A stretch of 64,000 nucleotides of DNA from Candidatus Dojkabacteria bacterium (GTDB lineage: Bacteria; Patescibacteriota; Dojkabacteria; SC72; JAHDCA01), in NCBI GenBank assembly GCA_030583845.1, contig CP129478.1:513835-577834 (forward strand), in the 5' to 3' direction. A program made the position numbers and the translations under genes. The notes beneath the pieces were generated by a model. It did no database searches and was not told where the DNA came from. It saw nothing but the letters and a program-made list of their open reading frames with translations. Positions 5,663-53,890 of this stretch are shown here, one piece after another (within the stretch, counting starts at the first letter, position 1; every line of letters starts with the position of its first letter).

Positions 5663-6094
5663 GGGGACGTAAGGCTTCGACAGGAGTATTACGTTCAGAG
5701 CCACAAGTGGAGGCTCCAGCTCTGTAAAACTGGAAACGACTGTAAGTGTCGAAAAACTATCAAACGCTTTCAATAAAGTAGTTGCGTTCGTTCAGAACCC
5801 TATGGGTGCTGTTCAGCCTAACTATATGTTTGCGTAAGCAAGCATTTGAAGGTCTAGCCCTGAGGGGCTGGCAATCTTGATTTCTCCTCCCGCTGAGGAA
5901 TCCTGATTGGTCATTAGCGGGATATAGCCTGGTTTGTGATAACTGCGTATCAGGCCGACCACAAAAGTCAGTTGTGCGGCCGCTCTGTTCCGCTAACCTA
6001 ATAGGCGCGGCTTTAAAAACAGGTTAGCTACACTTGTACAATGGTTCTGTACTTAGCTTCTTGGACGTGGGTTCAATTCCCACCGTCTCCACCA
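5663..6094 (+). ncRNA. ssrA: tmRNA (SsrA)
   Basis: 5-prime GGGGACGTAAGGCTTCGACAGG and 3-prime GGACGTGGGTTCAATTCCCACCGTCTCCACCA form a tRNA-Ala-like acceptor/T-arm with a G3:U70 pair and encoded CCA; internal tag ORF GCG..(or GCT at 5808)..AVQPNYMFA-TAA ends at 5837 (NY + hydrophobic tail as in ANDENYALAA); smpB is present at 53417. Confidence 0.75.
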
Positions 6095-38638: not shown

Positions 38639-39261
38639 ACTTCTGGTGTGTATACTTCATAAAATAGCTGAATCAGCTCGTTATTTTCAAGCTGGTGCCC
38701 CATTAGTCCCATCCGGCCAAGCTGCTTAAGAATATGGTCGCGCTTCGGGTAGAGGTAGATTCGCCCCTGTTCAGCTACCTGTAATTTATGCTTTTCAGAC
38801 AATATGCTGTTTGCGGCAGCTTTCTGCTTTTTCAGCTTAGCTCCAGCCAGTGGGTTTGCTGGATTGTAGGGGACGACCAGGTAAAATTTCTTATCCAGCA
38901 CATCATTAGTGACGATTAGGTTCTGAACGAAAGAGGTGTAGACAGTGAGTTGGGTCCTTAAGCCTTCAGACATTGGGCGTGAGAGCTGCTGATTGAGGTA
39001 GTCGATATAGTTGGCAATATCGATTCGTTGGGTCTTGATCAAGATCTGAATATGGAAGTTGAGCGAATTTAGGAGACCAGCAAAGGCGTAGATCTTGCTG
39101 TCTTGCTCATACTCTGAAAGTAGGTCGAAGTTAACTGCGTTGGTCTGGATGACAAGTGATACACTGCCGCTTTTGGTGATTACTAAATCGTCAATTACAT
39201 CGAGTATCTCTAGGTGATCTTGTGTCGATGGTTTGATTTTGCTTCTAACTTTCGGGTCCAA
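38635..39261 (-). CDS. hypothetical protein resembling the CagE/TrbE/VirB4 N-terminal region (possible separate N-domain component)
   Basis: LVITKSGSVSLVIQTNAVNFDLLSEYEQDS...LLNSLNFHIQILIKTQR resembles the opening of PF03135-type VirB4 N-termini; ATGA overlap with virB4 start/stop suggests translational coupling. Confidence 0.4.
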   Translation of the reverse strand: MDPKVRSKIKPSTQDHLEILDVIDDLVITKSGSVSLVIQTNAVNFDLLSEYEQDSKIYAFAGLLNSLNFHIQILIKTQRIDIANYIDYLNQQLSRPMSEGLRTQLTVYTSFVQNLIVTNDVLDKKFYLVVPYNPANPLAGAKLKKQKAAANSILSEKHKLQVAEQGRIYLYPKRDHILKQLGRMGLMGHQLENNELIQLFYEVYTPEV

Positions 39262-39279: not shown

Positions 39280-40287
39280 CTAATTTAAAGGGGTCACTAA
39301 AATTGGTGGATATATACCTTGCTCAATTACATAGTGAAGTCTTGGGAAATTATACTGGCCGTACTCTATGTCTACAAGGTACTCACCTGGCTTAAGCGGC
39401 TTTGCATTTACTAGGTTGCCGGCTCCATCTGTCTGATACACCTGCAATATGTTTTCTGAGGTATCTCTAAGCATTACCATAGCGCGGTGAAGTGGCTGCG
39501 AGCTGTCCTGGAGGTGGAGGTAGATCGTGTTTGGGTGTAGCTCCAAGCCCTCAATACTGTACTGGAATTGGGAGATGTTCTCCTTGGTAATTGTTACACG
39601 AGGTCGAGCCGGGAGCGGTGTTACCTGGTGTACCATCTGTGGCTGCTCAACTGCGGGTTGCTCGGGCTGTGCTGGTGCGGTACTCTCAGGCACTGCTGTG
39701 CCTTCCTGTTGCATCGGTTGTGGCTGTGGCATACTGCTCTGCATGCTGACCTGTGTTGAAGCAATATTTTCAATCTCCGCCAGCCTCTGCTCCTCCTCCA
39801 TGTCGAGAGCCTGGGTCACCTGAGAGCTTTGCATGAATTGATTTGACCCCATCTCACTTGGATCAACTCCACCTATGATCTTACTCTTCTGGTTCTTGGA
39901 AGATGCTGGGAGTTCATTACGCGACATCTCGCCCTGTGTCATTACTAGTCCGCGCTGCTCAGCAATCCCTTCTACCTTCCGGTCAAACTGCTCATTGCGC
40001 CATACTCGCCTGGTTGGTCGAGTAATTGCTGCAATATAGTTGGTAAGGAATGTATCGGCTTTCTGCTCATTTATTGGCACCAATCCGAGGAATAGCCCTA
40101 TTGCTGAAGAGATCAAGAAGATTGGGACAGCAATGAAGTATGTGAGCTCTCCACGAGTGGCAAAGTAGAGAAAAATCCCACCAAAGCCTATCCCTGCGGC
40201 CATATAGATAAATTCACGAACTGTAAATTTCGTAAAAAGCTTAAACTCTACGTCCAATATATTTTGTGGTATCGGATGCTGCTTCAT
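39280..40287 (-). CDS. PrgI/VirB3-like T4SS membrane protein with extended Q/P-rich linker and C-terminal domain
   Basis: KLFTKFTVREFIYMAAGIGFGGIFLYF + second TM helix matches the PrgI-family N-terminus; heads the virB4 operon. Confidence 0.5.
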   Translation of the reverse strand: MKQHPIPQNILDVEFKLFTKFTVREFIYMAAGIGFGGIFLYFATRGELTYFIAVPIFLISSAIGLFLGLVPINEQKADTFLTNYIAAITRPTRRVWRNEQFDRKVEGIAEQRGLVMTQGEMSRNELPASSKNQKSKIIGGVDPSEMGSNQFMQSSQVTQALDMEEEQRLAEIENIASTQVSMQSSMPQPQPMQQEGTAVPESTAPAQPEQPAVEQPQMVHQVTPLPARPRVTITKENISQFQYSIEGLELHPNTIYLHLQDSSQPLHRAMVMLRDTSENILQVYQTDGAGNLVNAKPLKPGEYLVDIEYGQYNFPRLHYVIEQGIYPPILVTPLN

Positions 40288-41279: not shown

Positions 41280-44200
41280 GTGTCCATGCAGTTCAATCTG
41301 AACGAACGACAACAAGAAGCAGTACAGCATAAAGCAGGACCACTGCTTATAATCGCTGGCGCTGGTACAGGAAAGACCGCAGTCATCACTAGGCGTATTA
41401 CTCATATTATTAATGAGGGCTGGGCTAAGCCATCTGAAATATTGGCCCTAACATTCACCGAGAAAGCTGCAGGAGAGATGCTCGAAAGGGTTGATCAAGA
41501 AATGCCAATCGGCCACGAAGAGATAGCCATCTCGACATTTCACTCTTTCTGCGATCGGATCTTGAGGCAGGAGGGGATATATATCGGTCTCGATACAAAT
41601 TATAAGCTGATGAGCCAGGCTCAATCATATATCCTGTTTAAGAAAAATCTGTTCACCATGTCGCTCGATAAATTCAGGCCGCTGGGCAACCCCACCTCAC
41701 ACATCGACGATATCCTGAAGCACTTCTCGCGATTGCAAGATGAAGATGTCTTCCCAGAGGAGTATATAAAGTTTGCCGAAAAGTTGCCCTCAACAACTGA
41801 AGAGGAGGAAGAGCTAAAGGCGGAGGCAGTTGAGCTAGCCAAAGTGTATAAAGAATACTCAGATATCAAGGTACGTGAGTCGATGCTCGACTTCGGAGAT
41901 CTGATACTGCTCACCCTGAGACTCTTCCGTGAGAAGCCGAATGTCCTAAAGAAATACCACGACCTCTACAAATATATCCTTGTAGACGAGTATCAGGATA
42001 CCAACTATACCCAAAATGTGCTCGTGAACACGATCGCATTTGGCGGCGACCAGAAGAATAAAACCGTAAAACAGAAACAGCCGAATGTCACTGTTGTAGG
42101 AGACGATGACCAGGCTATCTACAAGTTCCGAGGTGCTGCTATCTCAAACATCTTGCAATTCAATAAGACATATAAAGGTGTGAAGAAAGTGGTACTAGTC
42201 GAAAACTACCGATCTCGACAGGAGATACTCAACGCCGCCTACGACCTGATTCAGAAAAATAACCCCGACCGTTTGGAGATATCTGAGTCGATAGATAAAC
42301 GACTTGCGGCTCGAGCCGAATTTGAGGTACCAGAGGTCGATCCTGTGCAGCTAATTGTGGCAGACAGTGGTGCAGTTGAGGCCGACAGCGTAGCGAAAGA
42401 GATCCTGAATCTAACAGGCAACAAGGAGCTGCTTAAAAATGACAACTCGATCGTAAGCAGGAAGTTTGACTCGAAAGGGCAGAGCATGTTTGTGGATGTG
42501 GAGAAAGAGAATGGGGCAGAATTTAGATTCTCAGATATTGCACTGCTTGTTCGGGCAAATAATAACTCGGATGAATTTATCCAGGCATTCAAATATTACG
42601 GAATTCCGTTCAAGTTCTCTGGTCCAAAAGGGCTCTACTCACGGCCAGAGATCTCGAAGCTGATCTCTTTCTTGAGGCTGGTTGTTGATTACAAAGATGA
42701 TAGAAACATGTTCAACATCTTGAAGATGCAATCATTGGATCTGGATTCGCGCGATGTGGTGGAGCTTATGCGCCTTGCCAAAGAGCAGCGCCTATCTATA
42801 TTTGAGGAGATAGAGGCTATAACCGGTACTCGAATCGGCGATGTGGAGAGTGAAGAGATCGAGATCGCGGAAAATCGACGCAATCTGATTGAGAAGACCT
42901 TTAGCACTGATGCTATCGACTCAATGAAGGCTTTGGTCACACTTTTTGACAGCGCTTTTAAAGCAGTCAAAGAGGGACGAAGCATTGGCGAGATATTGTA
43001 CGATTTTGTGAAGAGTAGCGGCTACCTGGACTCAATGACGGAGGTCGAATCGTATGAGAATCAGTTCAAAATTCAGAATATGACAAAATTTTTCGACCTG
43101 ATCAAAAGTTATGAGCGCGACAATAATGACGCTTCTATCTACGACTATGTCGATTATCTGAACTATAGCATTGAGATAGGTGAGAGCCCTCGGGTGGATG
43201 AGGATATGCTTGAGGATTTTGACGCTGTGAAGATTATGACTGTCCACGGATCAAAGGGCTTGGAATTTCCTGTAGTATTTCTGACAAACCTGGTGTCAGA
43301 CCGATTCCCGACGCGGCGACGAAGCGACACAATTCCTATCGCAGAAGAGCTGGTTAAAGAGCAGTTTAGTGACGAGGATGAGCGGATAGCACACCTGAAG
43401 GAAGAGCGCAGGCTCTTCTATGTTGGCGCTACTCGTGCCAAAGAGCGCCTCTACCTGACCGCGGCGAAAGTATACGGCGATGCGAAAACCAAGCGGAAGC
43501 CAAGTCTATTCCTCGACGAGCTACTTGGCAGGAAGGTCTCGCTCGATTTTGCCGAAGATGGAGCAAATGTTCGCAAGGAGCCTGAATTTAAAGTTCAGAT
43601 CTCAACCTACGATGACTCGCTCGATGTGAAGGGACTCAACATCAGTGCGCCCTTAAACCTGAGCTACTCGCAGATAAAGACTTATGATGATTGTGGGAAA
43701 AAATATAAGTATCAGTATATTATCCGGCTTCCATCCAAACCGAGCTCGACGCTTTCATTTGGAAATACAGTGCATGCGGTGCTTAAGTCTTTCTATGAAC
43801 AGCAGAGGGCTGCTCTGTCCGGGCTTGAGGGCTTTGTCCAAACCCCGACAGTGGATGATCTGATCGATAGCTATCATGATAAATGGATATCCACAGGGTA
43901 TGATAGCCGAGAGCATGAGAAAATCCGCAAGGAGTATGGGGAAAGAAAATTGCGCGAGTTTTATGAAAACTTCTACTCGGTCAAGGAAAATCCGATTGAG
44001 CTGGAGAAGTCTTTTCACTACAAGATCGGGGGGGTTGGGATGACAGGAAAGATCGATAGGATTGACCTGGTAGGGAAAGAAGATGGTCGCGAGGTTGTAG
44101 ATCTGTTGGATTACAAAACTGGCAAGAAGAAGGAGCTGAGGGATGTGAAAAACGATTTGCAGCTGGCATTGTACACGATTGTGTGTGAGGAGGTGTTTAA

Positions 44201-44408
44201 TATGAAGGTACGGAAGGCGGGGTTACTCTTTGTCGAGCACTGTGAGAGAGTAGATATTGAGGTCGATGAAAAAATGCGACAGAAGTGCAAAGAGAAGATC
44301 CATGAAGTAGTTGAGCTGATAAGAAAAGAGGATTTTGCCGCGAAACCGAGCAAATTTACCTGTGGATTTTGTGATTTCCGTGATATCTGCTCGGATGCGG
44401 TAATCTAG
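41280..44408 (+). CDS. UvrD/PcrA-family helicase fused to C-terminal Cas4/AddB-like PD-(D/E)xK nuclease with Cys cluster (AddA/AdnB-like)
   Basis: Walker A AGAGTGKT, helicase motifs through VHGSKGLEFP and VGATRAKERL; nuclease module with DDCGKKYKYQY ... DLLDYKTGKK ... CGFCDFRDIC. Confidence 0.8.
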   Translation: MSMQFNLNERQQEAVQHKAGPLLIIAGAGTGKTAVITRRITHIINEGWAKPSEILALTFTEKAAGEMLERVDQEMPIGHEEIAISTFHSFCDRILRQEGIYIGLDTNYKLMSQAQSYILFKKNLFTMSLDKFRPLGNPTSHIDDILKHFSRLQDEDVFPEEYIKFAEKLPSTTEEEEELKAEAVELAKVYKEYSDIKVRESMLDFGDLILLTLRLFREKPNVLKKYHDLYKYILVDEYQDTNYTQNVLVNTIAFGGDQKNKTVKQKQPNVTVVGDDDQAIYKFRGAAISNILQFNKTYKGVKKVVLVENYRSRQEILNAAYDLIQKNNPDRLEISESIDKRLAARAEFEVPEVDPVQLIVADSGAVEADSVAKEILNLTGNKELLKNDNSIVSRKFDSKGQSMFVDVEKENGAEFRFSDIALLVRANNNSDEFIQAFKYYGIPFKFSGPKGLYSRPEISKLISFLRLVVDYKDDRNMFNILKMQSLDLDSRDVVELMRLAKEQRLSIFEEIEAITGTRIGDVESEEIEIAENRRNLIEKTFSTDAIDSMKALVTLFDSAFKAVKEGRSIGEILYDFVKSSGYLDSMTEVESYENQFKIQNMTKFFDLIKSYERDNNDASIYDYVDYLNYSIEIGESPRVDEDMLEDFDAVKIMTVHGSKGLEFPVVFLTNLVSDRFPTRRRSDTIPIAEELVKEQFSDEDERIAHLKEERRLFYVGATRAKERLYLTAAKVYGDAKTKRKPSLFLDELLGRKVSLDFAEDGANVRKEPEFKVQISTYDDSLDVKGLNISAPLNLSYSQIKTYDDCGKKYKYQYIIRLPSKPSSTLSFGNTVHAVLKSFYEQQRAALSGLEGFVQTPTVDDLIDSYHDKWISTGYDSREHEKIRKEYGERKLREFYENFYSVKENPIELEKSFHYKIGGVGMTGKIDRIDLVGKEDGREVVDLLDYKTGKKKELRDVKNDLQLALYTIVCEEVFNMKVRKAGLLFVEHCERVDIEVDEKMRQKCKEKIHEVVELIRKEDFAAKPSKFTCGFCDFRDICSDAVI

Positions 44409-44524
44409 TCGTGGGATTATTCGGAAATTGTCGATCACTTGTTATGACGGCGTTTTGTAGCGCTTTTCTATCCGATAATGTATAATTCCCCCGCATAAGT
44501 AAATGTGCTAGACTGGTTTTAATT

Positions 44525-44911
44525 GTGAATAATATTGGATCAATAACAAAAATTGCAGCTCGAATAGGTGCAATTCTTACTGCGATTTACACAACTGCAT
44601 TTCTCTTCGCAGGCCGTATTTACGCCGACGCGCTCAGTGACAGGATTGATGATGTAACAGATTCAAGGAATGAAGACGATTTAGTAAGCTCCATATTGCG
44701 GCTTGCAGTGCCTCTTGCGATTACTGCACTTGTGGCACTGTTTGTATTTGCCGGATATCAGATGCTCACAAGTCAAGGAAACCCCGATAAGCTCAATGAG
44801 GCTCGTGAGACTATTACCAATGCAGTACTTGGCTTTCTACTTATTGCACTTTCAGTCGCAATTCTAGTGCTGATTCAGAATGTCTTGCAAATTCCGGGTG
44901 TAAACCCTTAA
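44525..44911 (+). CDS. VirB2/TrbC-like T4SS pilin paralog 1
   Basis: Signal-like N-terminus, hydrophobic helix, FAGYQMLTSQGNPDKLNEARETI loop, second hydrophobic helix (compare VirB2 WAGFLMLTGG...). Confidence 0.55.
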   Translation: MNNIGSITKIAARIGAILTAIYTTAFLFAGRIYADALSDRIDDVTDSRNEDDLVSSILRLAVPLAITALVALFVFAGYQMLTSQGNPDKLNEARETITNAVLGFLLIALSVAILVLIQNVLQIPGVNP

Positions 44912-44930
44912 ATTTAGCGCTTTCAAAAAG

Positions 44931-45266
44931 ATGTTGAACGGAAAGATCAAAAAGTTCTCGAAGAAGATAGAGGCGACAGGGTTAGGGGCTTGTTGGTACG
45001 GAATATGTACACCGATTGGTGATAATATCTCTACCTACGCTGGTTTCATTGATACGGTGCAGGCACTCTTGAACGGGCTTATCGGCATCTCAGGTTTGGT
45101 TGCTGTAGCAGTCATGATATTTGGTGGTATTACAATTATTACCTCAGGAGGCGATTCGGACAAATTTGATAAGGGGCAGAAAACTGTGACCTATGCGGTG
45201 ATCGGACTTGTAATCGTGTTCATCTCGGTGCTTATTGTCAACTTCGTGTTTGACGTGGTACTCTAG
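44931..45266 (+). CDS. VirB2/TrbC-like T4SS pilin paralog 2
   Basis: Same two-helix architecture with FGGITIITSGGDSDKFDKGQKTV loop. Confidence 0.5.
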   Translation: MLNGKIKKFSKKIEATGLGACWYGICTPIGDNISTYAGFIDTVQALLNGLIGISGLVAVAVMIFGGITIITSGGDSDKFDKGQKTVTYAVIGLVIVFISVLIVNFVFDVVL

Positions 45267-45358
45267 AGAACGAGCGGGTTCATTGACCTTAAGAAGGCAA
45301 TAAGATATAATAGCCCATAACTCGAAAGTATATATTAATTATTTTAGGTATAACAAAA

Positions 45359-45724
45359 GTGAACACACGAAAACTGGCAACTGTTGCAGTAGCATCAGCT
45401 TCAATGATTAGCTCCACAGCTACTAATCTTTATGCACAAGCTCCTTGCTTCGGGTCAGCATGTATTGATGGCTTAAACCCAACAAACCAGAGCGACCTTT
45501 TGGCATTTATCCAGACAGCTCTCAACACCGTTATCGGTCTTGCAGCACTTATCGCAGTTGGATTCTTGGTATATAGCGGTATTCAGTATATCCTTGCAGC
45601 AGGTGATGAGAACAAGGTTGATAAAGCAACCAAGGGTATTATGTATGCAATCGTAGGTTTGGTTATCTGCTTCATCTCAGTATTGATCGTCAACTTCGTA
45701 TTGACAGCATTCCTAGGTCAGTAA
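45359..45724 (+). CDS. VirB2/TrbC-like T4SS pilin paralog 3
   Basis: VYSGIQYILAAGDENKVDKATKGIMYAIVGLVICFISVLIVNFV. Confidence 0.55.
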   Translation: MNTRKLATVAVASASMISSTATNLYAQAPCFGSACIDGLNPTNQSDLLAFIQTALNTVIGLAALIAVGFLVYSGIQYILAAGDENKVDKATKGIMYAIVGLVICFISVLIVNFVLTAFLGQ

Positions 45725-45753
45725 AGCGGATAGAACTGTGATTCTGAATATAG

Positions 45754-45790
45754 ACAGCGCCCTTGGACATAGTTCGGGGCGCTGTTTTAT
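45754..45790 (+). terminator. rho-independent terminator after pilin paralog 3
   Basis: ACAGCGCCC/GGGCGCTGT 9-bp stem followed by TTTTATT. Confidence 0.6.
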
Positions 45791-45860
45791 TGTAGAGGTG
45801 CTTTATGTGTAATTACGTTTGAGAAACTGCCGACTATAAAATATATGGTAAAATCTTGTT

Positions 45861-46139
45861 ATGGATGCAACAGATCTAATTGAACCTATAAACCCAACAG
45901 ATTTCGCGACATTGTCGGAGTTTGTGGTCTCAACAATGAACCTAATCATATCGATCGCAGCATTGGTAGCTGTTATTGCGCTTGTTTGGGCCGGTTTCCA
46001 ATACATCATCTCAAGAGGTGAGGGTGAAAAGGCCGAGAAAGCACAGAAATCAATAATTTATATCCTTATCGGTCTGGTACTTTGCTTTATATCGCCATTG
46101 GTGATTAACTTCATATTGGTACAGGTATTAGGCCAATGA
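45861..46139 (+). CDS. VirB2/TrbC-like T4SS pilin paralog 4
   Basis: VWAGFQYIISRGEGEKAEKAQKSIIYILIGLVLCFISPLVINFILVQVLGQ. Confidence 0.55.
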   Translation: MDATDLIEPINPTDFATLSEFVVSTMNLIISIAALVAVIALVWAGFQYIISRGEGEKAEKAQKSIIYILIGLVLCFISPLVINFILVQVLGQ

Positions 46140-46456
46140 GAAAGATAGCTCAATCACTCACAATCGCAGCTTCGCTAACATTCCTAGGTAGCCGTGCTGT
46201 GTTTGCAGCGCCTCCGAAGTTTGAGGATCTTTCTATAGTGATTGGCAATGCTTTGACTGCAGCGCTTAGCTTTTCTGCTTTGCTGGCAGTAGGGATGATT
46301 ATCTTCGCTGGATACACATACATGACCTCACAGGGTGATCCTCAAAAGATACAGCAGGCGCAGGGTACAATCACCTGGACTGTTGTTGCGCTTATCTTCC
46401 TCGCAATTTCGGGTGTGGCCATCATCGCACTGATGGACTTCTTCTCTATTCAGTAG
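46136..46456 (+). CDS. VirB2/TrbC-like T4SS pilin paralog 5
   Basis: IIFAGYTYMTSQGDPQKIQQAQGTITWTVVALIFLAISGVAIIAL; start overlaps the stop of paralog 4. Confidence 0.5.
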   Translation: MRKIAQSLTIAASLTFLGSRAVFAAPPKFEDLSIVIGNALTAALSFSALLAVGMIIFAGYTYMTSQGDPQKIQQAQGTITWTVVALIFLAISGVAIIALMDFFSIQ

Positions 46457-46487: not shown

Positions 46488-47147
46488 TTGGATAACCGCG
46501 AGCTCTCTTTTGTGCTAAAATTTGCTGAATTAAGTTGGCATTTTAAATCAATGGAGAACGAACAGAAAAAAGATAAAAGTTTGCAGCAACTTCGTATGTT
46601 AACGTTTATGGCGGTTGGTTCATGCATTTTCTTCTTCTATGTGGCATATATGGGCTTCACAGGCTCGCTTAGCATCCCAGGTATGGAGCAGGATAAAGGG
46701 GCATCGGTCCAGGGTGTTAATGATAGTGCAAACGATGTAGTAAAGCTCTCGCAAGGCACTCCAGCATCGATTCAGATCAATAATGCAGAAGCAGAAAGTG
46801 GTACCTCCACTGTAGAAGTGAAACTAAGCTCGCCAGTAAATCTGGCTGGTGCAGAGCTTTACTTTGAAATAGAGGGTAATCTGCAGGTGGCCGCAGTTAC
46901 ATGCTCAGCTCTTGTAACCTGCATCAGTAGTGAAGCCAAAAATGGTCGTGTAGAGATAATCGCGCTTGTATCTCCAGATAATGCAGAGCTTTTCCCCGCT
47001 GGTGTCTATGAGCTGGCAACAATAGCTTATGTTCCAGGAACTTATGGCGAATTGAAACTTGACCCACAGTCTACACTGCTCGAGATAGGCTCAGACCAAT
47101 CGATACTGTCGGATAGCAATCCACACCTTGCGGTTGGGAGCTATTAA
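46488..47147 (+). CDS. membrane-anchored surface protein with cohesin-like beta domain
   Basis: N-terminal TM; domain similar to that in 47186-47839 and 22709-23581 (VEVKLSSPVNLAGAELYFEIEG...). Confidence 0.4.
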   Translation: MDNRELSFVLKFAELSWHFKSMENEQKKDKSLQQLRMLTFMAVGSCIFFFYVAYMGFTGSLSIPGMEQDKGASVQGVNDSANDVVKLSQGTPASIQINNAEAESGTSTVEVKLSSPVNLAGAELYFEIEGNLQVAAVTCSALVTCISSEAKNGRVEIIALVSPDNAELFPAGVYELATIAYVPGTYGELKLDPQSTLLEIGSDQSILSDSNPHLAVGSY

Positions 47148-47185: not shown

Positions 47186-47839
47186 ATGACGCTGCTGCTC
47201 AAAGGATTAAGAAGACAAGGTAAGATTATCCGCACCTTTACGATTTTATTTGTAGCAACTTTGCTCTTTTCATTTGCCGCGACTCCTGCAGAGGCTGCGA
47301 CCATATCCATATCGCCAGCTTCTGGTACATATGCAGGATCTTTCTCGTTCAATGTCGTAATTGATGTTGCGAGTGGAGAGCAGATGGCGGCAGTAGACTT
47401 AAATATTGCCTATACCGGTCCGGTTGAGTTTGTAACCGCGGCTAATGGGGTTCAAAACTGTACCCCATCCGTCAATGCGGGTAGTGGTACGGTAAATGTG
47501 CTCTGTGCATCTCTTGATTACTTTCAAGATGGCGCAATTGTCAGGCTTACTTTCGTGGCTAACGGTAGTGGTACAGCTAATTTCACTGTTAGCGTGGCCG
47601 ACAGTGATGGGACAATCTCGAGTGCCACCGGCGCTTCCTATACTGTGAGCGGGAGTGGTGGTCAGGGAGGTGGTGGCGAATTGCCTGAAACAGCGTTAAT
47701 AGATGTGAAAACAGCTGGAGTAGGGACATTTCTACTAAGTGTAGGAATGGCGTCGCTGCTTCTTGGGCATGTAATAAATCGTGCACCCAAATCTGACGAG
47801 CTATATGAAGATAAGTGTTTGGCAGATAAGGTCAAATAA
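47186..47839 (+). CDS. surface protein with cohesin-like domain and C-terminal LPXTG-like (LPETA) sorting signal
   Basis: Signal peptide; Gly-rich spacer; ELPETA + hydrophobic helix (GVGTFLLSVGMASLLLGHVI) + charged tail. Confidence 0.5.
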   Translation: MTLLLKGLRRQGKIIRTFTILFVATLLFSFAATPAEAATISISPASGTYAGSFSFNVVIDVASGEQMAAVDLNIAYTGPVEFVTAANGVQNCTPSVNAGSGTVNVLCASLDYFQDGAIVRLTFVANGSGTANFTVSVADSDGTISSATGASYTVSGSGGQGGGGELPETALIDVKTAGVGTFLLSVGMASLLLGHVINRAPKSDELYEDKCLADKVK

Positions 47840-47854: not shown

Positions 47855-49735
47855 ATGCTTCTAAAAAAGAATATTAAAAATGCACTTTTTGTATTAATGA
47901 TTCTCTGTACTACAGGGTTGGCTCTCTTTTGGGTAGATTCAACACTTAGAACGCCAGTCAGATCGCAATCCGCCGAAGATCTCGAAGAAGAGCTAGAGCT
48001 TACACAGGAGCAGCTTGCCGAGCAGAATCGAATTTTGGAACAAGCCAGAAGTCAGATATCCAGAATTACCTCGAGTTCCCGATCGGTTAGCCAGAAAATC
48101 GCTGACTTGGAGGCAGTCATTGCTGATCTAGAGGCAGATATAAAGGACACGCAAGCGCAGATTACAACAAAAGAGGAGTCAATCAAGACTAAGCAAGGAG
48201 AGCTAGAAATCAAGGTCGACTCTGCGAAAGAGATAACTGGTCAGCTATATCGAGGCTCGCGTTCTAGCCTTCTTGAGCTAATCATGGCTCAAACCAAAAG
48301 CAACGACCTTCTACGCGCACTAGCCTACAGGAAGTATGTGTTCAGAGCCCACGCCGACCAGATGGCCAGTCTAAACAAAGAGATCGAATCTCTAGAAGCC
48401 GAGAAAGCAGCGTTGGATCAGGAGAAGGCTAACCTCGAGAGCCAAAATATAGCACTCGATGAGTCAAGGCAGGCCTTAAACGCTGAGCGGTCGAACTTGC
48501 AGGCTCAGCTAAATGCCCAGCGTAGCGCCTCGAATCAAGCCCAGTCACAGATCAACACCCTGAATGGTCAGATTACTCAGCTACAACAGCAGATCTTGAT
48601 CGCAAGATCGGGTGCATTTATACCTCCTATTGATTCAACCCCTATCGGTGCTGATTACCCTGGTACTGCAGCTGGATTTCGAGAGCTAGCACCATCGGGC
48701 TCATATGCTGTGTTCTCATTTGGTGCTTATACCCACCGTAATGGTATGAGTCAATGGGGTGCAAAAGCACGCGATGATGCAGGGCAGAACTTTAACCAGA
48801 TTCTGAGCGCATATTATCCTGGTACGACGATCCGGACTGGGACCGTCAATATCAATGGGACAATCGAGAATCTTACAGCCAATATCACTGTAACAGGGCA
48901 TGGAACTATGCCTTTTGAGGCCCAGTATCTACTTGGGATTAGGGAGATAACCGGAGCATGGAACAATTCTAGCGATATTAATGTGTTGAAAGCACAGGCG
49001 ATAGCGGCGAGAACCTATGCAATCCGCCGTACTACAAACGGCCGTACCGCAATCTGCGCGACAGAAAGCTGTCAGGTGTATAGTCCTAACCAGTTTGGGG
49101 GTACATGGACACAGGCGGTTCAAGAGACTGCAGGCATGATATTAACCGATGGGAATGGCGTGCCAGTTTCTACACAGTATGCAGCTGTACATGGTGGATA
49201 TGGTACTGGTGTTGGCTGGGACACGACAGACGGAAGTGGCAGCGGTGATTGGATGTCTAGAGCTTATGATAGGATCAGTGGAGTATCATGGTTTTATAAA
49301 GCATGGTATAGGCAGGGCTACTCCAGCTCTGGCGAGTCGTGTGGAAGATACTCATGGCTAAATCAGGAAGAGATGGCAGATATCCTCAATGCATGGCTAG
49401 TTATGAACAACCAAGGTGTGGTTGGCAACCCGGATCTAAACAGAATCATTCCGGTGACGATCTCGACATGCCCGATCGGTGTTGGTGGCAACCCGTACTC
49501 TATGGCCGAGCTTCGTTCGTACCTAAGTGCGCCAGTAACTTCGATAAGTGGCCTGCCAGGGATAATATTTACAGGCAGCGGAAACACTTCTAGCGTTGTG
49601 TTTAGCACGAACCGGGGTACAGTCGTAATACCTGGCTCTGAATTTAAAACTATCTTTAATACTCGCGCACCTGGTCATCTCAGATTGCCATATCAGGGTA
49701 ATTACTACCACTTCAACGTTGAGAGGAAGCTGTAG
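47855..49735 (+). CDS. SpoIID/LytB-domain peptidoglycan hydrolase with N-terminal TM and long coiled coil
   Basis: KAQAIAARTYAIRRT...ICATESCQVYSP SpoIID signature; about 230-aa heptad-rich coiled coil after TM. Confidence 0.6.
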   Translation: MLLKKNIKNALFVLMILCTTGLALFWVDSTLRTPVRSQSAEDLEEELELTQEQLAEQNRILEQARSQISRITSSSRSVSQKIADLEAVIADLEADIKDTQAQITTKEESIKTKQGELEIKVDSAKEITGQLYRGSRSSLLELIMAQTKSNDLLRALAYRKYVFRAHADQMASLNKEIESLEAEKAALDQEKANLESQNIALDESRQALNAERSNLQAQLNAQRSASNQAQSQINTLNGQITQLQQQILIARSGAFIPPIDSTPIGADYPGTAAGFRELAPSGSYAVFSFGAYTHRNGMSQWGAKARDDAGQNFNQILSAYYPGTTIRTGTVNINGTIENLTANITVTGHGTMPFEAQYLLGIREITGAWNNSSDINVLKAQAIAARTYAIRRTTNGRTAICATESCQVYSPNQFGGTWTQAVQETAGMILTDGNGVPVSTQYAAVHGGYGTGVGWDTTDGSGSGDWMSRAYDRISGVSWFYKAWYRQGYSSSGESCGRYSWLNQEEMADILNAWLVMNNQGVVGNPDLNRIIPVTISTCPIGVGGNPYSMAELRSYLSAPVTSISGLPGIIFTGSGNTSSVVFSTNRGTVVIPGSEFKTIFNTRAPGHLRLPYQGNYYHFNVERKL

Positions 49736-49892: not shown

Positions 49893-50519
49893 GTGATGCA
49901 AGTTCAGATACCAGACAAGTTCAAAATCAATCGCAAATCGTTTGTAACCAAGATTACGCAGGCAAATTCTAGGTCTGCGATTAGCAATTTCTGCGCTTTC
50001 CCGAAGAATGTGAGCTTCACAGGCAAGGAGATCGACGAGTGTGTTGTGCTTCTTGTGCGTCGAAGCCTCGTCTCATATTGGCCACAATATCTTCTGATCT
50101 TCTTTTTTATTATCGCTCCGATGATATTTGGTGTGCTTCTGAGTGCATGGGATAATGAAAATACCGCCGCAATTGGCTTGGCCGCGACCATACTTTTCTG
50201 GTTGTTAGCATTCACAACTGCAGTTGATACATTCTTGAAATGGTTCTACTCGGTAAATATTATTACCGACCAACGCGTCATCGATGTCGACTTTAATAAT
50301 GTGCTTTATCATAGATACTCTGAAGCTCAGCTTGAGAATATCCAGGATGTGACTCACTCGGTCGCAGGATTACTTGGCTCAATCTTCGATTATGGAGATG
50401 TATATATCCAGACTGCAGGTACCAACCCAGAGTTTGTATTTGAGATGGTTCCAAAGCCAAGAATTGTACAGGATACGTTGCAGGACTTACTTGAAATGAA
50501 GCAGGAGGGCACACTTTAA
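49893..50519 (+). CDS. membrane protein with bacterial PH (bPH_2/YdbT-like) domain
   Basis: Two TM helices followed by ...IITDQRVIDVDFN...DYGDVYIQTAG pattern typical of bPH_2. Confidence 0.45.
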   Translation: MMQVQIPDKFKINRKSFVTKITQANSRSAISNFCAFPKNVSFTGKEIDECVVLLVRRSLVSYWPQYLLIFFFIIAPMIFGVLLSAWDNENTAAIGLAATILFWLLAFTTAVDTFLKWFYSVNIITDQRVIDVDFNNVLYHRYSEAQLENIQDVTHSVAGLLGSIFDYGDVYIQTAGTNPEFVFEMVPKPRIVQDTLQDLLEMKQEGTL

Positions 50520-50770
50520 TGGATTATGTTGGCCAGCTAAACCAAACAGGTGTAGAAGTGCTCAGTCTAAACTTTGCATTTCAATGCCTCTTCTTCGTAC
50601 TTATTGTCGGATACCTTTTTTATGCCTTCATGCTCACGGTTCGTGTGAGAATACTTTCAGAAACGATTAAAGCGCCCTATAACAATCTTGCTGTCACCAT
50701 AAGCTATATCCACCTGCTTGTAGCATTAATTGGTGGATTCCTTGCATTGTTGGTGATTCTTCTTGCATAA
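50519..50770 (+). CDS. small membrane protein
   Basis: 83 aa, two hydrophobic helices; ATGG overlaps with flanking genes. Confidence 0.35.
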   Translation: MDYVGQLNQTGVEVLSLNFAFQCLFFVLIVGYLFYAFMLTVRVRILSETIKAPYNNLAVTISYIHLLVALIGGFLALLVILLA

Positions 50771-53435
50771 TAGAGGCATGAAAATTCATCTTAAAGATTT
50801 TCTGGTCGATAGTCCCGACAGATCCTCGGTAACCAAGATCTTCCGCTCAGACCTCTCGGGTGATATTAGAGGTCACCTGGTAATACTGCTATCGATTAAG
50901 GCAAAAGGAAAAGTTGATGTAAACCAGATCGCGCCATTTATTATCAATGGTGTTGGTCTTGGTGCCAAAGCAGCAAAATCTCCGATCGAGTGTCTAAAAT
51001 TGGGTCTAGAGCAGGGTGAACGACAGCTGCGTGACCTTATTCGCCACGATGGAGAGGCAGAGCTAGGCCTTGATGTGAATCTCTCAATGGTGCTGCTCCA
51101 AGAAGGCAAAGCCTATATTGGTATGCTTGGCTCTCATGAGATCCGCCTATACCACGATGAAAATCTGGTAGATGTCACAGAAATCTTAGAAACCAACAAT
51201 GTCCAAACTTGTAGCCTAGTGATTAAGGATGAAGATTATTTCGTACTTTCATCTTCACGAGCCTTCTTTGACCAGCTGAGCTCTGCTACATCAGGGAGTG
51301 CCAAAGAGCTTTTCAACGATATTTCAAACACGCAGAGTGTTCTTGAGCAAGGTGAAGGACTACTTCTACTCTCGACAGGTGTAGATTTTGAGAAGTTTGC
51401 AGAGGAATATGCCGCGCCATTTGCGGCTGATCGTGACGACCAGCTTGTTGCACCTCACAATTCAGCGCTTTTTGATGTAGTGCTGACTGAGGATGAGCTA
51501 AATGTTAGCGATATTAAGGAAGAAGTTGAAGAGGAGCTAGAGGAAAAGTTGGAAGAAAAAGAGGTTGAGACAAACTCCTTCTTGGATAGTCATGCAGATG
51601 AGCCAGAGGTAGGGGCAGCCCAAACTAGGGCGTCCCGGACCTGGGACGCCCCAGAAGCTGAGCCGGCTCCCAGAGCGACTTCTCGAGATGTTTTAGAAAC
51701 TGAAACCGAAAAATATGTAGAGGAGGTCGATGAGGATCAGCCAGCAAAAGTGCAAGAAGTGCCTGTAAAGTCCAGCTCATATACAGAAAAAATGCGAGAT
51801 ACGTTCAAACCGCTGAGCGTTACGCCAACACCACCCGCAAGTGTGCCCCCTGCCATCTCGACCTCGGCCGCTCCACAAGATATCAAGAAGTTCAAAGATA
51901 TCCGTAAGCCACTGCGTGAATTTAAGTCAGGCGTAGATGTAGAAGACCTGAAAGGGAAATTCCGCACAGTTTCCAACAAGACTCAGCAAAAATTAAGTCC
52001 GGTAGTCAATAAAGTGGGTACAAACCTCTCTAGGAAGTATGACACAGTTTCTACTCGGGTTACCAATAGGCTCTCGACAAAATATGGTCGAAGTCCATGG
52101 TTTAAACGAATCATGGCAAAATTAAGCCAGGCTCGAGTAAGCAGCGGTAAGGCACCGGGACTAAGACTTGGTGAGTACAGAGAGAGGGCAAATCGAAGGA
52201 GCAAATTCACCAAGATTGCACTGGCGTTTGTTATTGTTGCGCTAATCTTTAGCGGATGGAGAATTACCCAGAATTGGAAATATAAGTCAGAAGTCCACAG
52301 CAAATTTGTGAGCTATCTGTCAGCTGTTGAGGGTAGCCTAAGTGAGGCCGAAGCAAAGGTGAATAGTAGCCCGGAAGAAGCCATCCTAGCACTGTTTAAT
52401 GCACAAAAGAAGATTGACCAGATACCTGTAAGCCTAGATGACCTGTCAGAAGATGATCGTGAGGCATATAGCGACCTTCAAGGACGTGTACTGGGAATCT
52501 CCGACCAGGTAAATAAGGTGACGGTACTTTCTGAAGATTCTGGCAACATAAGTCTATTTGCAGATGGCAGGATTGATTTCGACTCAAAGTCTGCACCAAC
52601 TGACATTGCCATTTTTAGAAACTCTGAGCTGGTAGAGCAGCTATTGATTACCGACAGAGGTACAAGCTCGGTCTACCGAATCCCGACCGTTGGAGGTGAT
52701 GTGAAGAAAATTCTTGACACAAACGGTGTTGTTAAAACCCCGATGTATATCGATGTAGGAACCAATGGTATATATATTTTTGACGAGACAGCAGGTGTAT
52801 TGAGAGCTGCGTTTGGTGACTCAGATAGTGAGATCACCACATTCACGACGCTGACTGGGGCAGGCCGAGATCAATTTGAAGGTGCAAGTGTAGATGAGTT
52901 TGCCGTATTTACCGCCGCAGACAATCTTTACGTCTTGAGCAAGAGTGCAAACTCTATTTTCAAGTCTCAACGAGCGTCCAGCGGTTCTTACGGATTGCCA
53001 TTTGTGTATTATGAAAATGCTGTTTTGTCCAGCGGTGAAGATCTTTTTGCTGACTTCAATATCTATGTGATCACAGGCGGGGCTACAGGGCTAAATCGTT
53101 ATACATTTGATAGCAGGCGGGGAGCATTGACGGAGTTCCCAGTGGAAGTTGCTGAGCTACGCGGATCATTTGAAAATCTAACCGCCGGATACACAGGGGC
53201 TGATCTGACCAAAGAGCTATATCTATTTGACAATGCAACCAAGAGGATAATAATCTTGGCGAAGCCTAGTGAGGGTGATAATGCAAATGCTAGCGTGATG
53301 GTGATGCAGAAACAGTTTGAGTATAGAGGGGACAATGATGAAATGTTTGAGAATGTCTCAGATATAGTTGTGGATGATGCAGAGCAGTTCATGTATGTCC
53401 TTGATGGGACTAAAGTGTGGAAGATCACCCTGTGA
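50763..53435 (+). CDS. large bitopic membrane protein (cytoplasmic about 470 aa, acidic/low-complexity linker, one TM at about residue 480, extracytoplasmic about 400 aa), function unknown
   Basis: TM FTKIALAFVIVALIFSGW; carries an in-frame copy of a palindromic repeat in its acidic linker. Confidence 0.5.
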   Translation: MHNRGMKIHLKDFLVDSPDRSSVTKIFRSDLSGDIRGHLVILLSIKAKGKVDVNQIAPFIINGVGLGAKAAKSPIECLKLGLEQGERQLRDLIRHDGEAELGLDVNLSMVLLQEGKAYIGMLGSHEIRLYHDENLVDVTEILETNNVQTCSLVIKDEDYFVLSSSRAFFDQLSSATSGSAKELFNDISNTQSVLEQGEGLLLLSTGVDFEKFAEEYAAPFAADRDDQLVAPHNSALFDVVLTEDELNVSDIKEEVEEELEEKLEEKEVETNSFLDSHADEPEVGAAQTRASRTWDAPEAEPAPRATSRDVLETETEKYVEEVDEDQPAKVQEVPVKSSSYTEKMRDTFKPLSVTPTPPASVPPAISTSAAPQDIKKFKDIRKPLREFKSGVDVEDLKGKFRTVSNKTQQKLSPVVNKVGTNLSRKYDTVSTRVTNRLSTKYGRSPWFKRIMAKLSQARVSSGKAPGLRLGEYRERANRRSKFTKIALAFVIVALIFSGWRITQNWKYKSEVHSKFVSYLSAVEGSLSEAEAKVNSSPEEAILALFNAQKKIDQIPVSLDDLSEDDREAYSDLQGRVLGISDQVNKVTVLSEDSGNISLFADGRIDFDSKSAPTDIAIFRNSELVEQLLITDRGTSSVYRIPTVGGDVKKILDTNGVVKTPMYIDVGTNGIYIFDETAGVLRAAFGDSDSEITTFTTLTGAGRDQFEGASVDEFAVFTAADNLYVLSKSANSIFKSQRASSGSYGLPFVYYENAVLSSGEDLFADFNIYVITGGATGLNRYTFDSRRGALTEFPVEVAELRGSFENLTAGYTGADLTKELYLFDNATKRIIILAKPSEGDNANASVMVMQKQFEYRGDNDEMFENVSDIVVDDAEQFMYVLDGTKVWKITL
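51628..51652. repeat. GGGCGTCCCGG-N-CTGGGACGCCCC palindromic repeat copy inside the CDS 50763-53435 (translated in frame as AQTRASRTWDAP)
   Basis: Same hairpin module as 937-961 and 23611-23635; sits in an acidic linker. Confidence 0.5.
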
Positions 53436-53890
53436 GCATAAAAATTATCTCAAAAAACAAGCGGGCATATTTCGATTATGAGATCTTAGAGGAATTTGAA
53501 GCTGGAATTGCACTTGCTGGTGCTGAGGTCAAGTCTGTAAAGAATTCCCAAGTTAATCTAGCCGATTCTTTTGTACGGTTTGAAGGCGACCAGGCTTATC
53601 TCTGGAACGCAAATATCGCCATGTATAAGCATGCATACGATCCCTCTTACGATCCATTAAGGAGTCGTAAGCTATTATTAAAGAAAGGGGAGATAGATAT
53701 GCTTCAGAGCAAGGTTAAGCAGGCTCGCCTTACTGTTGTACCGCTAAAGGTATACTTAAGTAGAGGGCTAGTCAAATTATCTATCGGGCTGGTGCGGGGC
53801 AAGAAACAGTATGAGAAGAAACTAAAAATTAAGGAGCGTGACCTTGATCGTGAGCTACATAGAGAAAAAAGGGTTCACATGGTAAAATAG
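53417..53890 (+). CDS. smpB: SsrA-binding protein SmpB
   Basis: KNKRAYFDYEILEEFEAGIALAGAEVKS..., RSRKLLLKKGEI, VVPLKVYLSRGLVKLSIGLVRGKKQYEKK. Confidence 0.85.
   Translation: MEDHPVSIKIISKNKRAYFDYEILEEFEAGIALAGAEVKSVKNSQVNLADSFVRFEGDQAYLWNANIAMYKHAYDPSYDPLRSRKLLLKKGEIDMLQSKVKQARLTVVPLKVYLSRGLVKLSIGLVRGKKQYEKKLKIKERDLDRELHREKRVHMVK

Follow-up and report, generated by a model that had tools for sequence, protein, structure and literature searches.

Introduction

Pilins of the TrbC/VirB2 kind polymerise with phospholipid into an extracellular tubular pilus, and in some of them the ends of the pilin are cyclised. For the T4SS of Patescibacteria, of which we know no pilus to have been seen in any member, the candidate roles are effector export, or the import of host nucleotides or DNA. 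Diverged pilin genes in tandem, between 2 and 11 to a row and termed 'VirB2 arrays', have already been published from this phylum (Wang 2023, PMC10633639; Quinonero-Coronel 2025, PMC12102498); the latter survey counted 441 such arrays across 383 assemblies (PMC12102498). Published arrays include the six VirB2-like pilins of Ca. Southlakia epibionticum ML1 and the 'Sec secreted array' of TM7x (PMC10633639; PMC12102498; reviewed in PMC12857230). In the one species tested, S. epibionticum, the T4SS is essential for epibiotic growth (PMC10633639). The pilin arrays are the oddest trait of this T4SS because Gram-positive-type T4SSs are normally without a pilus (PMC12857230). Rows of such genes have been read as variable repertoires in Bartonella (Trw) and Anaplasma (VirB2 arrays), and the same reading was suggested for Patescibacteria by Quinonero-Coronel et al. 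(PMC12102498).

Here we describe an array on a chromosome of Ca. Dojkabacteria (Patescibacteria/CPR), within a stretch of 64,000 nucleotides referred to below as the window. Five adjoining small genes are diverged copies of a VirB2-like T4SS_pilin membrane protein and lie by T4SS genes. The array is a well-preserved further example of the published system, not a new kind; what it adds to the published array work is positional orthology between genomes, unequal rates of evolution, leader-less members and a three-unit layout.

Results

The array and its family

The five ORFs, here named p1 to p5 (their products 100% identical to the Ca. Dojkabacteria MAG entries QY318_02530-02550), are consecutive on the + strand at 44525-46456, where the preliminary description had placed them: p1 at 44525-44911 (128 aa, GTG start), p2 at 44931-45266 (111 aa), p3 at 45359-45724 (121 aa, GTG start), p4 at 45861-46139 (92 aa) and p5 at 46136-46456 (106 aa). 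The intergenic gaps from p1 to p5 are 19, 92, 136 and -4 nt, the start of p5 overlapping the stop of p4 (ATGA). In each of the five proteins two segments of 19 residues are strongly hydrophobic (mean Kyte-Doolittle 2.2-3.0). All five have a common core of helix, G-[DE]-x-x-K loop and helix, in which the G and K of the loop are invariant. The four loop strings quoted earlier were exact, and the fifth, that of p2, is GGITIITSGGDSDK. Pairwise identity within the array is 19-43%.

Against PF18895 (T4SS_pilin), with a gathering cut-off of 26.6 bits, p1 to p5 scored 33.1, 33.8, 47.2, 45.4 and 33.8 bits, so that all five passed, and each ORF matched on its own with E-values of 6e-8 to 2e-12. A profile built from the five pilins found no further match among window ORFs of at least 60 aa. 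Since each ORF separately matches PF18895 and the profile finds no other ORF in the window, the array is not a product of chance. Matches to PF04956 (TrbC/VirB2; gathering cut-off 27.9 bits) all fell below the cut-off (p4 26.5 bits, E 7.8e-6; p2 20.9; p3 17.0; p1 14.8), and p5 had no match to this family; the E-values for p4 and p2 are significant and therefore indicate homology without formal membership. Among 113 relatives, PF18895 was matched by 113 and PF04956 by 37. For NF045849 (Mbov_0395 family pilin-like conjugal transfer protein), whose equivalog cut-off is 40 bits, p3 was the sole paralog above it (43.7 bits), followed by p4 (34.8), p5 (31.0), p2 (27.1) and p1 (19.6). The earlier assignment to a VirB2/TrbC-type pilin family thus stands in substance, with PF18895 passed by all five, PF04956 reached below threshold by four, and T4SS genes on the flanks; the results named beforehand as speaking against it were the lack of any pilin HMM match and a holin-like assignment, and neither was obtained.

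p3 is the nearest of the five to the family consensus, with the top PF18895 score, and 89 of 120 classified database matches were of its type. The single-sequence search with p1 returned 12 close relatives only, being too insensitive for the p1 type outside Dojkabacteria. p4 carries the product name 'pilin' at NCBI. No match to p3 was found by tblastn in 72,556 plasmids, so at the sensitivity of this search nothing points to an origin from a plasmid or ICE. AF2 models of p1 and p4 were helical (three helices, pLDDT 87, and a helical hairpin, pLDDT 86, respectively), and structure searches did not tell pilins apart from other helical hairpins. The profile of the 113 relatives, run against PDB sequences, gave nothing better than E of about 1, with rhodopsin on top; by this search the T4SS_pilin family has no member or detectable relative with a solved structure.

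Positional orthology and unequal rates

Seven genomes were compared: that of the window and those of six relatives (L032, L034, L035, L037, L038 and L039). The order and sizes of the five genes are kept in six of the seven, and the array of L037 (DTUPAT1) has four pilins in order, with p4 absent; p1 orthologs are present in all seven. Across these genomes the nearest cross-genome neighbour of a pilin stood at the same array position in 34 of 34 cases, mean identity was 43-66% within a position as against 22-45% between positions, and each paralog carries position-specific conserved motifs. The array consists of five ancient orthogroups. No DNA repeat longer than 16 nt was found between the copies, nor any tandem-repeat signal or gene-conversion tract; recent duplication or gene conversion as the source of the array was ruled out because the copies have no shared repeats or tandem-repeat signal.

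Rates were judged between the window and L032 by dN and amino-acid identity alone, and not by dN/dS, because dS was saturated for most genes; dN ranged over 0.04-0.37. The copies evolve at very unequal rates. p4 has 97% amino-acid and 78% nucleotide identity to its L032 ortholog, and its dN of 0.037 is the lowest among 18 genes; the corresponding identities of VirB4 and SmpB are 83% and 80%. p2, the fastest-evolving copy, has 56% identity and p5 61%, and both evolve faster than most neighbouring genes. The paralogs differ from one another chiefly at the N-terminal end of the mature protein and in the C-tail.

N-termini

A signal-like N-terminus had been ascribed to every member of the array. 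This was borne out for p1, p3 and p5, in which a basic or hydrophobic N-region precedes a conserved A-x-A-type site (..YA↓DALS, ..A↓Q/P and ..A↓APP[KR], respectively), and not for p2 or p4, so that a Sec-type signal peptide is predicted in just three of the five paralogs. In p1 both the mature N-terminus (DALSDRI...) and the C-terminal tail (IPG[VIL]x-P) are conserved, and the signal peptide is poor in L038 and L039; the mature N-terminus APP[KR] is likewise conserved in p5. No normal signal peptide is predicted in p2. Its N-terminus is Lys-rich, with a best 10-residue hydrophobic window of just 1.0-1.4, and the conserved motif [ACST]-W-[YF]-G-I-[CS] comes next. We rejected p2 as a lipoprotein; its LGAC/LSAC 'lipobox-like' string is limited to the close relatives of the window and the hydrophobic stretch is far too short. 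p4 has no predicted signal peptide but an acidic N-tail of 20-25 residues with no K/R. No upstream extension of the p2 or p4 ORF is possible.

Transcription signals

A promoter-like extended -10 element, TGTATAAT, can be read upstream of p1 (44479-44486, + strand), and the gap between the helicase gene and p1 carries TGTATAAT or GGTATAAT in all six of the compared genomes. Upstream of p3 lies a sigma-70-type promoter-like site, TTGACC-17-TATAAT (45283-45311, + strand), which matches the consensus at 11 of 12 positions and is the top match in the region. The block around it, ATTGACCTTAAGAAGGyAATAAGATATAAT, is 28/29 identical among the window, L032 and L034, and its -10 element is invariant across five genomes. 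p3 is followed by an intrinsic terminator (45754-45791, + strand), made up of the stem ACAGCGCCC / GGGCGCTGT (45754-45785; 9-12 bp, G+C-rich) and then TTTTATT. A hairpin with a T-run stands at the same post-p3 position in L032, L034, L035, L038 and L039, the stem sequences being unrelated; the strong terminator reported earlier within the array is confirmed. A second promoter-like extended -10 element, TGGTAAAAT (45846-45854, + strand), ends 6 nt before the ATG of p4, and TG-n-TA[AG]AAT occurs at the matching pre-p4 position in L032 and L034. If active, it would yield a leaderless or near-leaderless p4-p5 transcript. Taken together, the promoter-like and terminator elements, which are conserved across relatives, suggest three transcription units: p1-p2, p3 and p4-p5.

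Genomic context

VirB4, TrsD-like and PrgI/VirB3-like genes lie ~6 kb upstream of the array and a VirD4-like ATPase gene ~8 kb downstream. The VirB4-like T4SS ATPase (36149-38638, - strand) scored 379 bits against NF045971 (CD1110 family; cut-off 325) and matched Pfam P-loop_TraG and AAA_10. It is followed in coordinate order by a TrsD/TraD-like protein (38635-39261, - strand; NF041427 E 7.5e-8, below cut-off), whose orthologs match PF26593 (TraC-like) weakly, and by a PrgI/VirB3-like membrane protein with two hydrophobic segments (39280-40287, - strand; PF12666 PrgI 37.6 bits against a cut-off of 27). A UvrD-type helicase with a PD-(D/E)XK nuclease domain (41280-44408, + strand; Pfam of orthologs: UvrD-helicase, UvrD_C, PDDEXK_1, Cas_Cas4) is encoded directly 5' of p1 in every genome examined.

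On the other side, a SpoIID-domain protein (47855-49735, + strand; PF08486 50.2 bits), conserved in its downstream position, is a candidate cell-wall lytic factor. Then comes a conserved trio (49893-53435, + strand): a two-segment membrane/bPH-like protein (49893-50519), a DUF5657 protein (50519-50770) and an 890-aa protein (50763-53435), all on the + strand. The trio is also present in L032, L034, L037, L038 and L039, and in L035 without a called DUF5657 gene. The 890-aa protein was considered as a VirB6, which was not supported, as it has just one strong hydrophobic segment and no family match. The VirD4-like/HerA-type ATPase (54713-57313, + strand) matched PF01935 (33.4 bits), TrwB_AAD_bind and TraG-D_C (both weakly) and NF045973 (VirD4-like CD1115; E 5e-12, below cut-off), and is a candidate coupling protein. 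M23 is also among the T4SS-context genes.

The T4SS parts recognised in the window are VirB4, VirB3-like, TrsD-like and VirD4-like proteins with cell-wall hydrolases only; neither the VirB5-VirB11 diderm core set nor a VirB6-like polytopic protein was found there. When 31 VirB4-anchored GTDB loci were taken with 10 kb on either side, pilins occurred in L001 only, and the other 30 had no pilin within 10 kb. The VirB4 block adjoins the array only in close relatives of the window; the pilin arrays of relatives were reached via the pilins themselves, not via VirB4 anchors.

Discussion

A model of specialised subunits

On balance we favour the view that the five genes encode specialised, non-redundant subunits of one T4SS-associated filament or conduit, with p3 likely the major one. 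The pilins would enter the cytoplasmic membrane, with p1, p3 and p5 using Sec and signal peptidase I and p2 and p4 a leader-independent route, and the VirB4 machinery would then draw them from the membrane pool into a single filament or conduit, which, by analogy with Saccharibacteria, may serve contact with the host cell. There the five paralogs would act together as non-redundant specialised subunits, not as interchangeable variants. p3 is probably the major subunit, the whole basis for this being its own promoter-like site, its own terminator and its position nearest the family consensus; p1-p2 and p4-p5 would be accessory subunits of lower abundance (base, tip or nucleation), and p4 would be the paralog whose contacts constrain it most. 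In other Patescibacteria, genes for PF18895 pilins rank among those with the highest expression (PMC10936435). In S. epibionticum the pilins as a series are reported to be essential (PMC10633639), which fits non-redundancy, and co-action of the paralogs is supported by the fusion of 2-10 diverged pilin domains into one polypeptide in other Patescibacteria.

Several observations count against the filament model. A signal peptide is not predicted for p2 or p4, and that of p1 appears poor in L038 and L039; the array of L037 (DTUPAT1) lacks p4 even though this copy is the most conserved of the five. The PF04956 cut-off is also missed, no VirB6-like protein is found in the window, and VirB4 is mostly distant from the arrays.

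A stronger form of the model, possible but doubtful, is a single hetero-oligomeric VirB2-type structure in a monoderm, built from five obligate, non-interchangeable subunits. Either p3 would be the major subunit, with dedicated 'minor pilins' p1, p2, p4 and p5 in VirB5/VirB6 roles, or each five-subunit layer would be made of the five different paralogs. To our knowledge, no T4SS pilus is at present known to require several VirB2 paralogs. If the hetero-oligomer is real, polypilin fusions (2-10 domains per chain) would be a covalent version of the same principle.

Alternative explanations

The preliminary description had left the choice between antigenic and functional diversification. If the paralogs were interchangeable variants of one major pilin, one or few being used at a time for surface variation (antigenic or phage evasion) or for matching of host strains, then the low identity within the array (19-43%), the pace of p2 and p5 (56% and 61% identity, outpacing most neighbouring genes) and the clustering of differences in the N-terminal mature part and C-tail, regions that face outward in known VirB2-type pili, would all be expected, and three separate promoter-like sites would permit differential expression. 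We consider this quite unlikely, since orthology is strictly 1:1 by position (34/34 across seven genomes) with position-specific motifs, copy number is unchanged apart from one loss, repeats and gene-conversion tracts are absent, p4 is almost invariant, and leader type differs between positions in a fixed manner; nor would an essential pilin series, as reported for S. epibionticum (PMC10633639), be expected if the copies were redundant. Specialisation is thus favoured over antigenic variation because of the fixed orthogroups, the lack of DNA repeats, the unequal rates, the apparent three units and the leader-less members, and of the two earlier proposals the functional one stands.

It is also unlikely, if somewhat less so, that the pilins stay in the membrane and together contribute their 10 helices to the translocon or assembly platform of the T4SS, for example in place of a VirB6-like channel subunit that went undetected, with no extracellular pilus being made. 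The window yielded no VirB6-like polytopic protein, VirB6 is reported to be rare or missing in several classes of Patescibacteria (PMC12102498), Gram-positive-type T4SSs normally do without a pilus (PMC12857230), and two of the five paralogs have no predicted cleavable leader. Moreover, related 'polypilin' proteins of up to 8-10 fused hairpins (16-20 helices) resemble polytopic membrane proteins more than extractable subunits; since both termini of VirB2-type pilins lie on one side, however, fused hairpins could still polymerise. The homology to pilins (PF18895 and, below threshold, PF04956) argues against a purely membrane-bound role, and an apparently monocistronic p3 with its promoter and terminator, together with very high PF18895 expression elsewhere in Patescibacteria (PMC10936435), would better fit an abundant polymer. 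The reading of the five as small membrane proteins of unrelated origin (holin-like, bacteriocin-immunity-like, or of a type IV pilus or pseudopilus), with no more than a likeness to T4SS pilins, is essentially refuted. Weak, chance-level matches to many membrane-protein families were seen, but all five proteins pass a curated pilin-family cut-off and no holin or immunity family rose above threshold in Pfam or NCBIfam. A holin was ruled out by the absence of any holin family from these matches and by the neighbours, T4SS and housekeeping genes that belong to a T4SS locus on the chromosome and not to a phage lysis cassette. A type IV pilin or pseudopilin was ruled out because none of the five translations contains the class III prepilin leader (G↓F/M-x-x-x-E) and the proteins form a two-helix hairpin, not a single N-terminal helix.

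The array matters in that the comparison between genomes narrows the hypotheses: five fixed orthogroups, unequal constraint, a p3 that appears to be separately transcribed, and leader-less members speak for a composite structure whose subunits divide the labour and not for a variable surface repertoire. The comparison also names candidates, p3 for the major subunit and p4 for the most constrained core contact.

Comparison with known systems

The array is a Patescibacteria pilin array by the definition of PMC12102498, being tandem, diverged and in a host with a monoderm-type VirB4. It shares with the published VirB2 arrays the family (PF18895/PF04956 profiles), the phylum, the tandem arrangement, and a chromosomal, apparently relaxase-free, monoderm-type T4SS (CD1110-like VirB4, TrsD, PrgI); its within-array identity is similarly low (19-43%; published arrays average 25% and reach at most 54%; PMC12102498). 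It differs in belonging to the class Dojkabacteria/WS6, which the main text of the published survey does not mention by name (PMC12102498), in having five genes where S. epibionticum has six, in following a UvrD/PD-(D/E)XK helicase and, in distant Dojkabacteria, in lying >10 kb from virB4.

The Mycoplasma ICE proteins of NF045849/PF18895 (MMCAP2_0565 type) have the same 70-80 residue core of helix, G-[DE]-x-x-K loop and helix and the same association with a monoderm VirB4 (NF045975/NF045971 types). They are, however, single genes on mobile elements, whereas here there are five chromosomal paralogs, of which p3 alone reaches the equivalog cut-off. Like the Gram-negative TrbC/VirB2/TraA pilins (T-pilus, F-pilus, RP4 pilus), the proteins are small, with two hydrophobic helices and a short charged loop, apparently have a long cleavable leader in three of five cases, and are encoded with VirB4 and VirB3; unlike in those systems, VirB5, VirB7-11 and an outer-membrane core are missing from the locus, the array belongs to a monoderm, and two copies are apparently leader-less. 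A parallel with type IV pili and T2SS pseudopili (GspG with GspH-K) holds by analogy only: there would be one probable abundant subunit and about four conserved co-encoded accessory paralogs, but fold and machinery are unrelated, neither a class III leader nor prepilin peptidase logic applies, and a minor-pilin role here is hypothetical. The TrwL genes of Bartonella Trw and the VirB2 arrays of Anaplasma/Rickettsiales (as cited in PMC12102498) are likewise diverged VirB2-type genes in a row by a host-interaction, non-conjugative T4SS. The arrays of these pathogens are interpreted as variable surface repertoires, whereas in Dojkabacteria copy number, order and per-position motifs are fixed class-wide, which argues for division of labour.

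Identity of the pilin genes

The five small genes at 44525-46456 are arranged in tandem on the + strand: p1 (44525-44911, 128 aa, GTG start), p2 (44931-45266, 111 aa, ATG start), p3 (45359-45724, 121 aa, GTG start), p4 (45861-46139, 92 aa, ATG start) and p5 (46136-46456, 106 aa, ATG start). They bear the locus tags QY318_02530 to QY318_02550 of Ca. Dojkabacteria (WS6; a Patescibacteria/CPR MAG, contig of 1,036,382 bp), with identical proteins; NCBI names p4 'pilin' and p1, p2 and p5 'hypothetical protein'. Alignment showed a common core of ~75 residues (hydrophobic helix, loop, second hydrophobic helix), with 19-43% identity between pairs; the loop reads x-G-[DE]-x-x-K, its Gly and Lys being invariant. 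The five-ORF array of the preliminary description was confirmed, and the loop strings it gave are exact. For p4 and p1, AlphaFold2 gave confident models (pLDDT 86 and 87, respectively) that contain the long helical hairpin which was expected; p1 adds to it one N-terminal helix that includes its leader.

All five proteins passed the curated cut-off of Pfam T4SS_pilin, PF18895 (33.1-47.2 bits vs 26.6), which supports the pilin family call made earlier. Four of the five matched Pfam TrbC/VirB2, PF04956 (E down to 7.8e-6), all below its cut-off of 27.9 (best 26.5 bits). Among 113 relatives, every one matched PF18895 and 37 matched PF04956. Because PF18895 is passed and PF04956 scores stay sub-threshold, p1-p5 are T4SS_pilin members, homologous to classical VirB2/TrbC pilins yet not formal members of PF04956. 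The sole related NCBIfam model, NF045849 ('Mbov_0395 family pilin-like conjugal transfer protein'), was passed by p3 only. With 88,687 representatives (50% identity level) matching the profile at E<=1e-3, the family is a very large one. A structure search of the PDB added nothing for the pilins because any helical hairpin matches equally well, and a profile search of PDB sequences found no solved relative.

Genomic surroundings

Upstream of the array, the - strand encodes a VirB4-like ATPase (36149-38638; passing NF045971, CD1110 family, with 379 bits vs 325), a TrsD-like protein (38635-39261) and a PrgI/VirB3-like protein (39280-40287), and the + strand an M23 peptidase (35139-35801). Immediately 5' of p1 is a gene whose product joins a UvrD-type helicase to a PD-(D/E)XK/Cas4-like nuclease domain (41280-44408, +). 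This gene adjoins p1, at a distance of 18-119 nt, in 7/7 Dojkabacteria genomes, even in genomes that have the VirB4 block elsewhere; the adjacency may be plain synteny or a T4SS link to DNA processing. The array is followed, in order, by genes for two secreted cohesin/Ig-like proteins (46488-47147 and 47186-47839, both +, the second with a weak cohesin/Ig-like match), SpoIID, a bPH-like membrane protein, DUF5657, an 890-aa protein without assigned function, SmpB (53417-53890, +, in a conserved block) and a VirD4-like ATPase (54713-57313). No relaxase domain was found among the larger window ORFs scanned, and the locus matches the T4SS reported for Patescibacteria, which is chromosomal, monoderm-type and apparently relaxase-free.

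The secreted pair between p5 and SpoIID is limited to the window's close relatives; its second member ends in LPETA, a hydrophobic stretch and a basic tail, resembling a sortase sorting signal. Other surface or secreted proteins of the window are a cohesin-plus-dockerin protein (22709-23581, -) and a 1504-aa alpha-2-macroglobulin-like protein (25379-29893, +), whose gene overlaps an ORF carrying a bMG10 domain (29757-30881, +); the overlap may mark a frameshift or a split gene. The SmpB gene lies 47 kb from its partner tmRNA (5663-6094, +, 432 nt, Rfam 111.8 bits), which ARAGORN did not report. Neither strand of positions 9100-10760 (~1.6 kb) has an ORF of >=100 aa, an unusual gap in a compact genome; the stretch matched nothing in Rfam at E<=0.1 and lacks notable repeats. 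Among the VirB4-anchored comparison loci, L002-L031 include many MAGs with VirB4 57-71% identical to the window's; their titles, 'uncultured Candidatus Saccharibacteria' and in some cases even 'uncultured Gammaproteobacteria', look like taxonomic mislabels.

Leaders and transcription signals

Sec-type N-regions with conserved A-x-A-type sites are present in p1, p3 and p5. No leader is apparent in p2, whose unusual N-terminal region (44931-45080) is Lys-rich (five Lys within residues 1-12), devoid of a hydrophobic core and continued by a conserved W-[YF]-G-I-[CS], or in p4, which has a short acidic N-tail; upstream extension of either ORF is impossible. The signal-like N-terminus previously ascribed to every copy hence holds for p1, p3 and p5 and fails for p2 and p4. 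A C-x4-C motif, possibly a disulfide loop, is common to p2 (CWYGIC) and mature p3 (CFGSAC, 45440-45470) within the window's clade.

The element TGTATAAT precedes p1 in every genome compared. The best promoter-like site in the region, TTGACC-17-TATAAT (45283-45311), lies 5' of p3; this 29-nt block is 28/29 identical across three genomes whose coding DNA is just 59-78% identical, and in five genomes its -10 element does not vary. A hairpin and T-run follow p3 in 6/6 genomes, with unrelated stem sequences, which confirms the terminator (45754-45791) that the preliminary description had placed within the array and extends it to six genomes. A TG-n-TAAAAT -10-like element ends 6 nt before the p4 ATG (45846-45863) and no Shine-Dalgarno sequence precedes the gene, a layout repeated in the array loci L032 and L034 of other Dojkabacteria; the mRNA from which p4 is translated may be leaderless. 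The p4 stop and p5 start are joined by an ATGA overlap. To judge from these signals, the likely transcription units are p1-p2, p3 alone and p4-p5.

Conservation and divergence of the array

Traced by the pilins themselves, the array was found in six additional Dojkabacteria genomes, with identical pilin order after the helicase-nuclease gene in all six and consistent sizes (p1, 117-146 aa; p2, 110-112 aa; p3, 118-130 aa; p4, 90-94 aa; p5, 103-107 aa). SpoIID lies 3' of the array, with 1-2 secreted-protein genes in between in the window's close relatives. The one genome without p4 is DTUPAT1 (locus L037), its p3-p5 gap being just 69 nt (L037 10369-10439); p4 is the most conserved copy in the other genomes. 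For 34/34 proteins the closest cross-genome relative occupies the same array position, mean identity being 43-66% at the same position and 22-45% between positions. Positions also have their own motifs: a mature N-terminus DALS... and C-terminal IPG-x-x-P in p1, W-[YF]-G-I-[CS] in p2, SRGEGEKAEKAQKS in p4 and a mature N-terminus APP[KR] in p5. Since orthology and motifs are position-specific and no DNA repeats common to the array copies were found, the five pilins are ancient orthogroups, not recent or recombining duplicates.

Rates of change are unequal. Across 18 genes compared with the L032 relative by amino-acid identity, p4 was 97% identical (dN 0.037, the lowest of the 18), VirB4 83%, SmpB 80%, p3 76%, p1 75%, p5 61% and p2 56%; synonymous sites were saturated, so that no dN/dS ratio is given.

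Fused pilins in relatives

The top relatives in a 1.84-billion-protein library are not single pilins: 140 of the best 150 (P0121-P0267) carry 2-8 or more consecutive pilin domains per chain, such as P0123, with 8 domains in 820 aa, and P0235, with ~10 matches in 966 aa. These chains, of up to 966 aa, carry a single leader, at the N-terminus, and their domains abut or are joined by short linkers (0-40 aa); mean identity between domains of one chain is 34-58%, some domains (34-39%) having diverged like separate paralogs. The polypilins are real ORFs: P0123 is a clean translation from contig L040 (9925-12387), and P0270 (PIT98131.1, 527 aa, P0124 cluster) is an annotated protein of a Ca. Andersenbacteria MAG. 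Such Rosetta-stone-type fusions hint that diverged pilin domains work together in one assembly. Right after the 8-domain polypilin, L040 (12675-16481) encodes a 155-aa pilin, a 383-aa PF18895 plus PKD protein and a 718-aa PKD-repeat protein, a gene set suggesting that adhesin modules can ride on a pilin scaffold. No mention of fused pilins was found in a survey of Patescibacteria pilins (PMC12102498).

Meaning of the multiplicity

The five proteins are T4SS_pilin proteins within a conserved chromosomal T4SS neighbourhood, and their five-fold multiplicity is old, ordered and constrained. We infer that they would be non-redundant subunits of a single structure, which fits the essentiality reported for the Southlakia epibionticum pilin series (Wang et al., PMC10633639). 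The abundant subunit is likely p3, because a strong promoter-like site and a terminator serve this gene alone, because its family scores are the best, and because 89/120 database relatives are of p3 type. The other four are likely accessory subunits; protein contacts probably constrain p4 the most, and the most exposed or host-facing copies are probably p2 and p5.

That the paralogs form a repertoire of variants is a reading weakened by the strict orthology by position and by the absence of recombination among copies. The pilins may instead be a membrane-resident part of the translocon: no VirB6-like protein was recognised in the window, p2 and p4 appear leaderless, and many relatives are long fused multi-hairpin proteins. 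Of greater interest, the pilins may form a composite VirB2-type structure that includes dedicated minor subunits.

Tandem T4SS pilin arrays of Patescibacteria are already published. Quinonero-Coronel et al. (2025, PMC12102498) applied PF04956 and PF18895 to 3,035 Patescibacteria genomes and reported 441 'VirB2 arrays' of 2-11 pilin genes each in 383 assemblies, with an average identity of 25% inside an array; they likened them to the VirB2 arrays of Bartonella and Anaplasma, and proposed host-range versatility. A 2025 review (PMC12857230) described the six S. epibionticum pilins as 'structurally conserved, but sequence-divergent' and speculated on a pilus conduit, and PF18895 genes rank among the most highly expressed in other Patescibacteria (PMC10936435). 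Because the main text of the survey does not name Dojkabacteria, the present array is a new member of this group, an additional and unusually well-ordered example.
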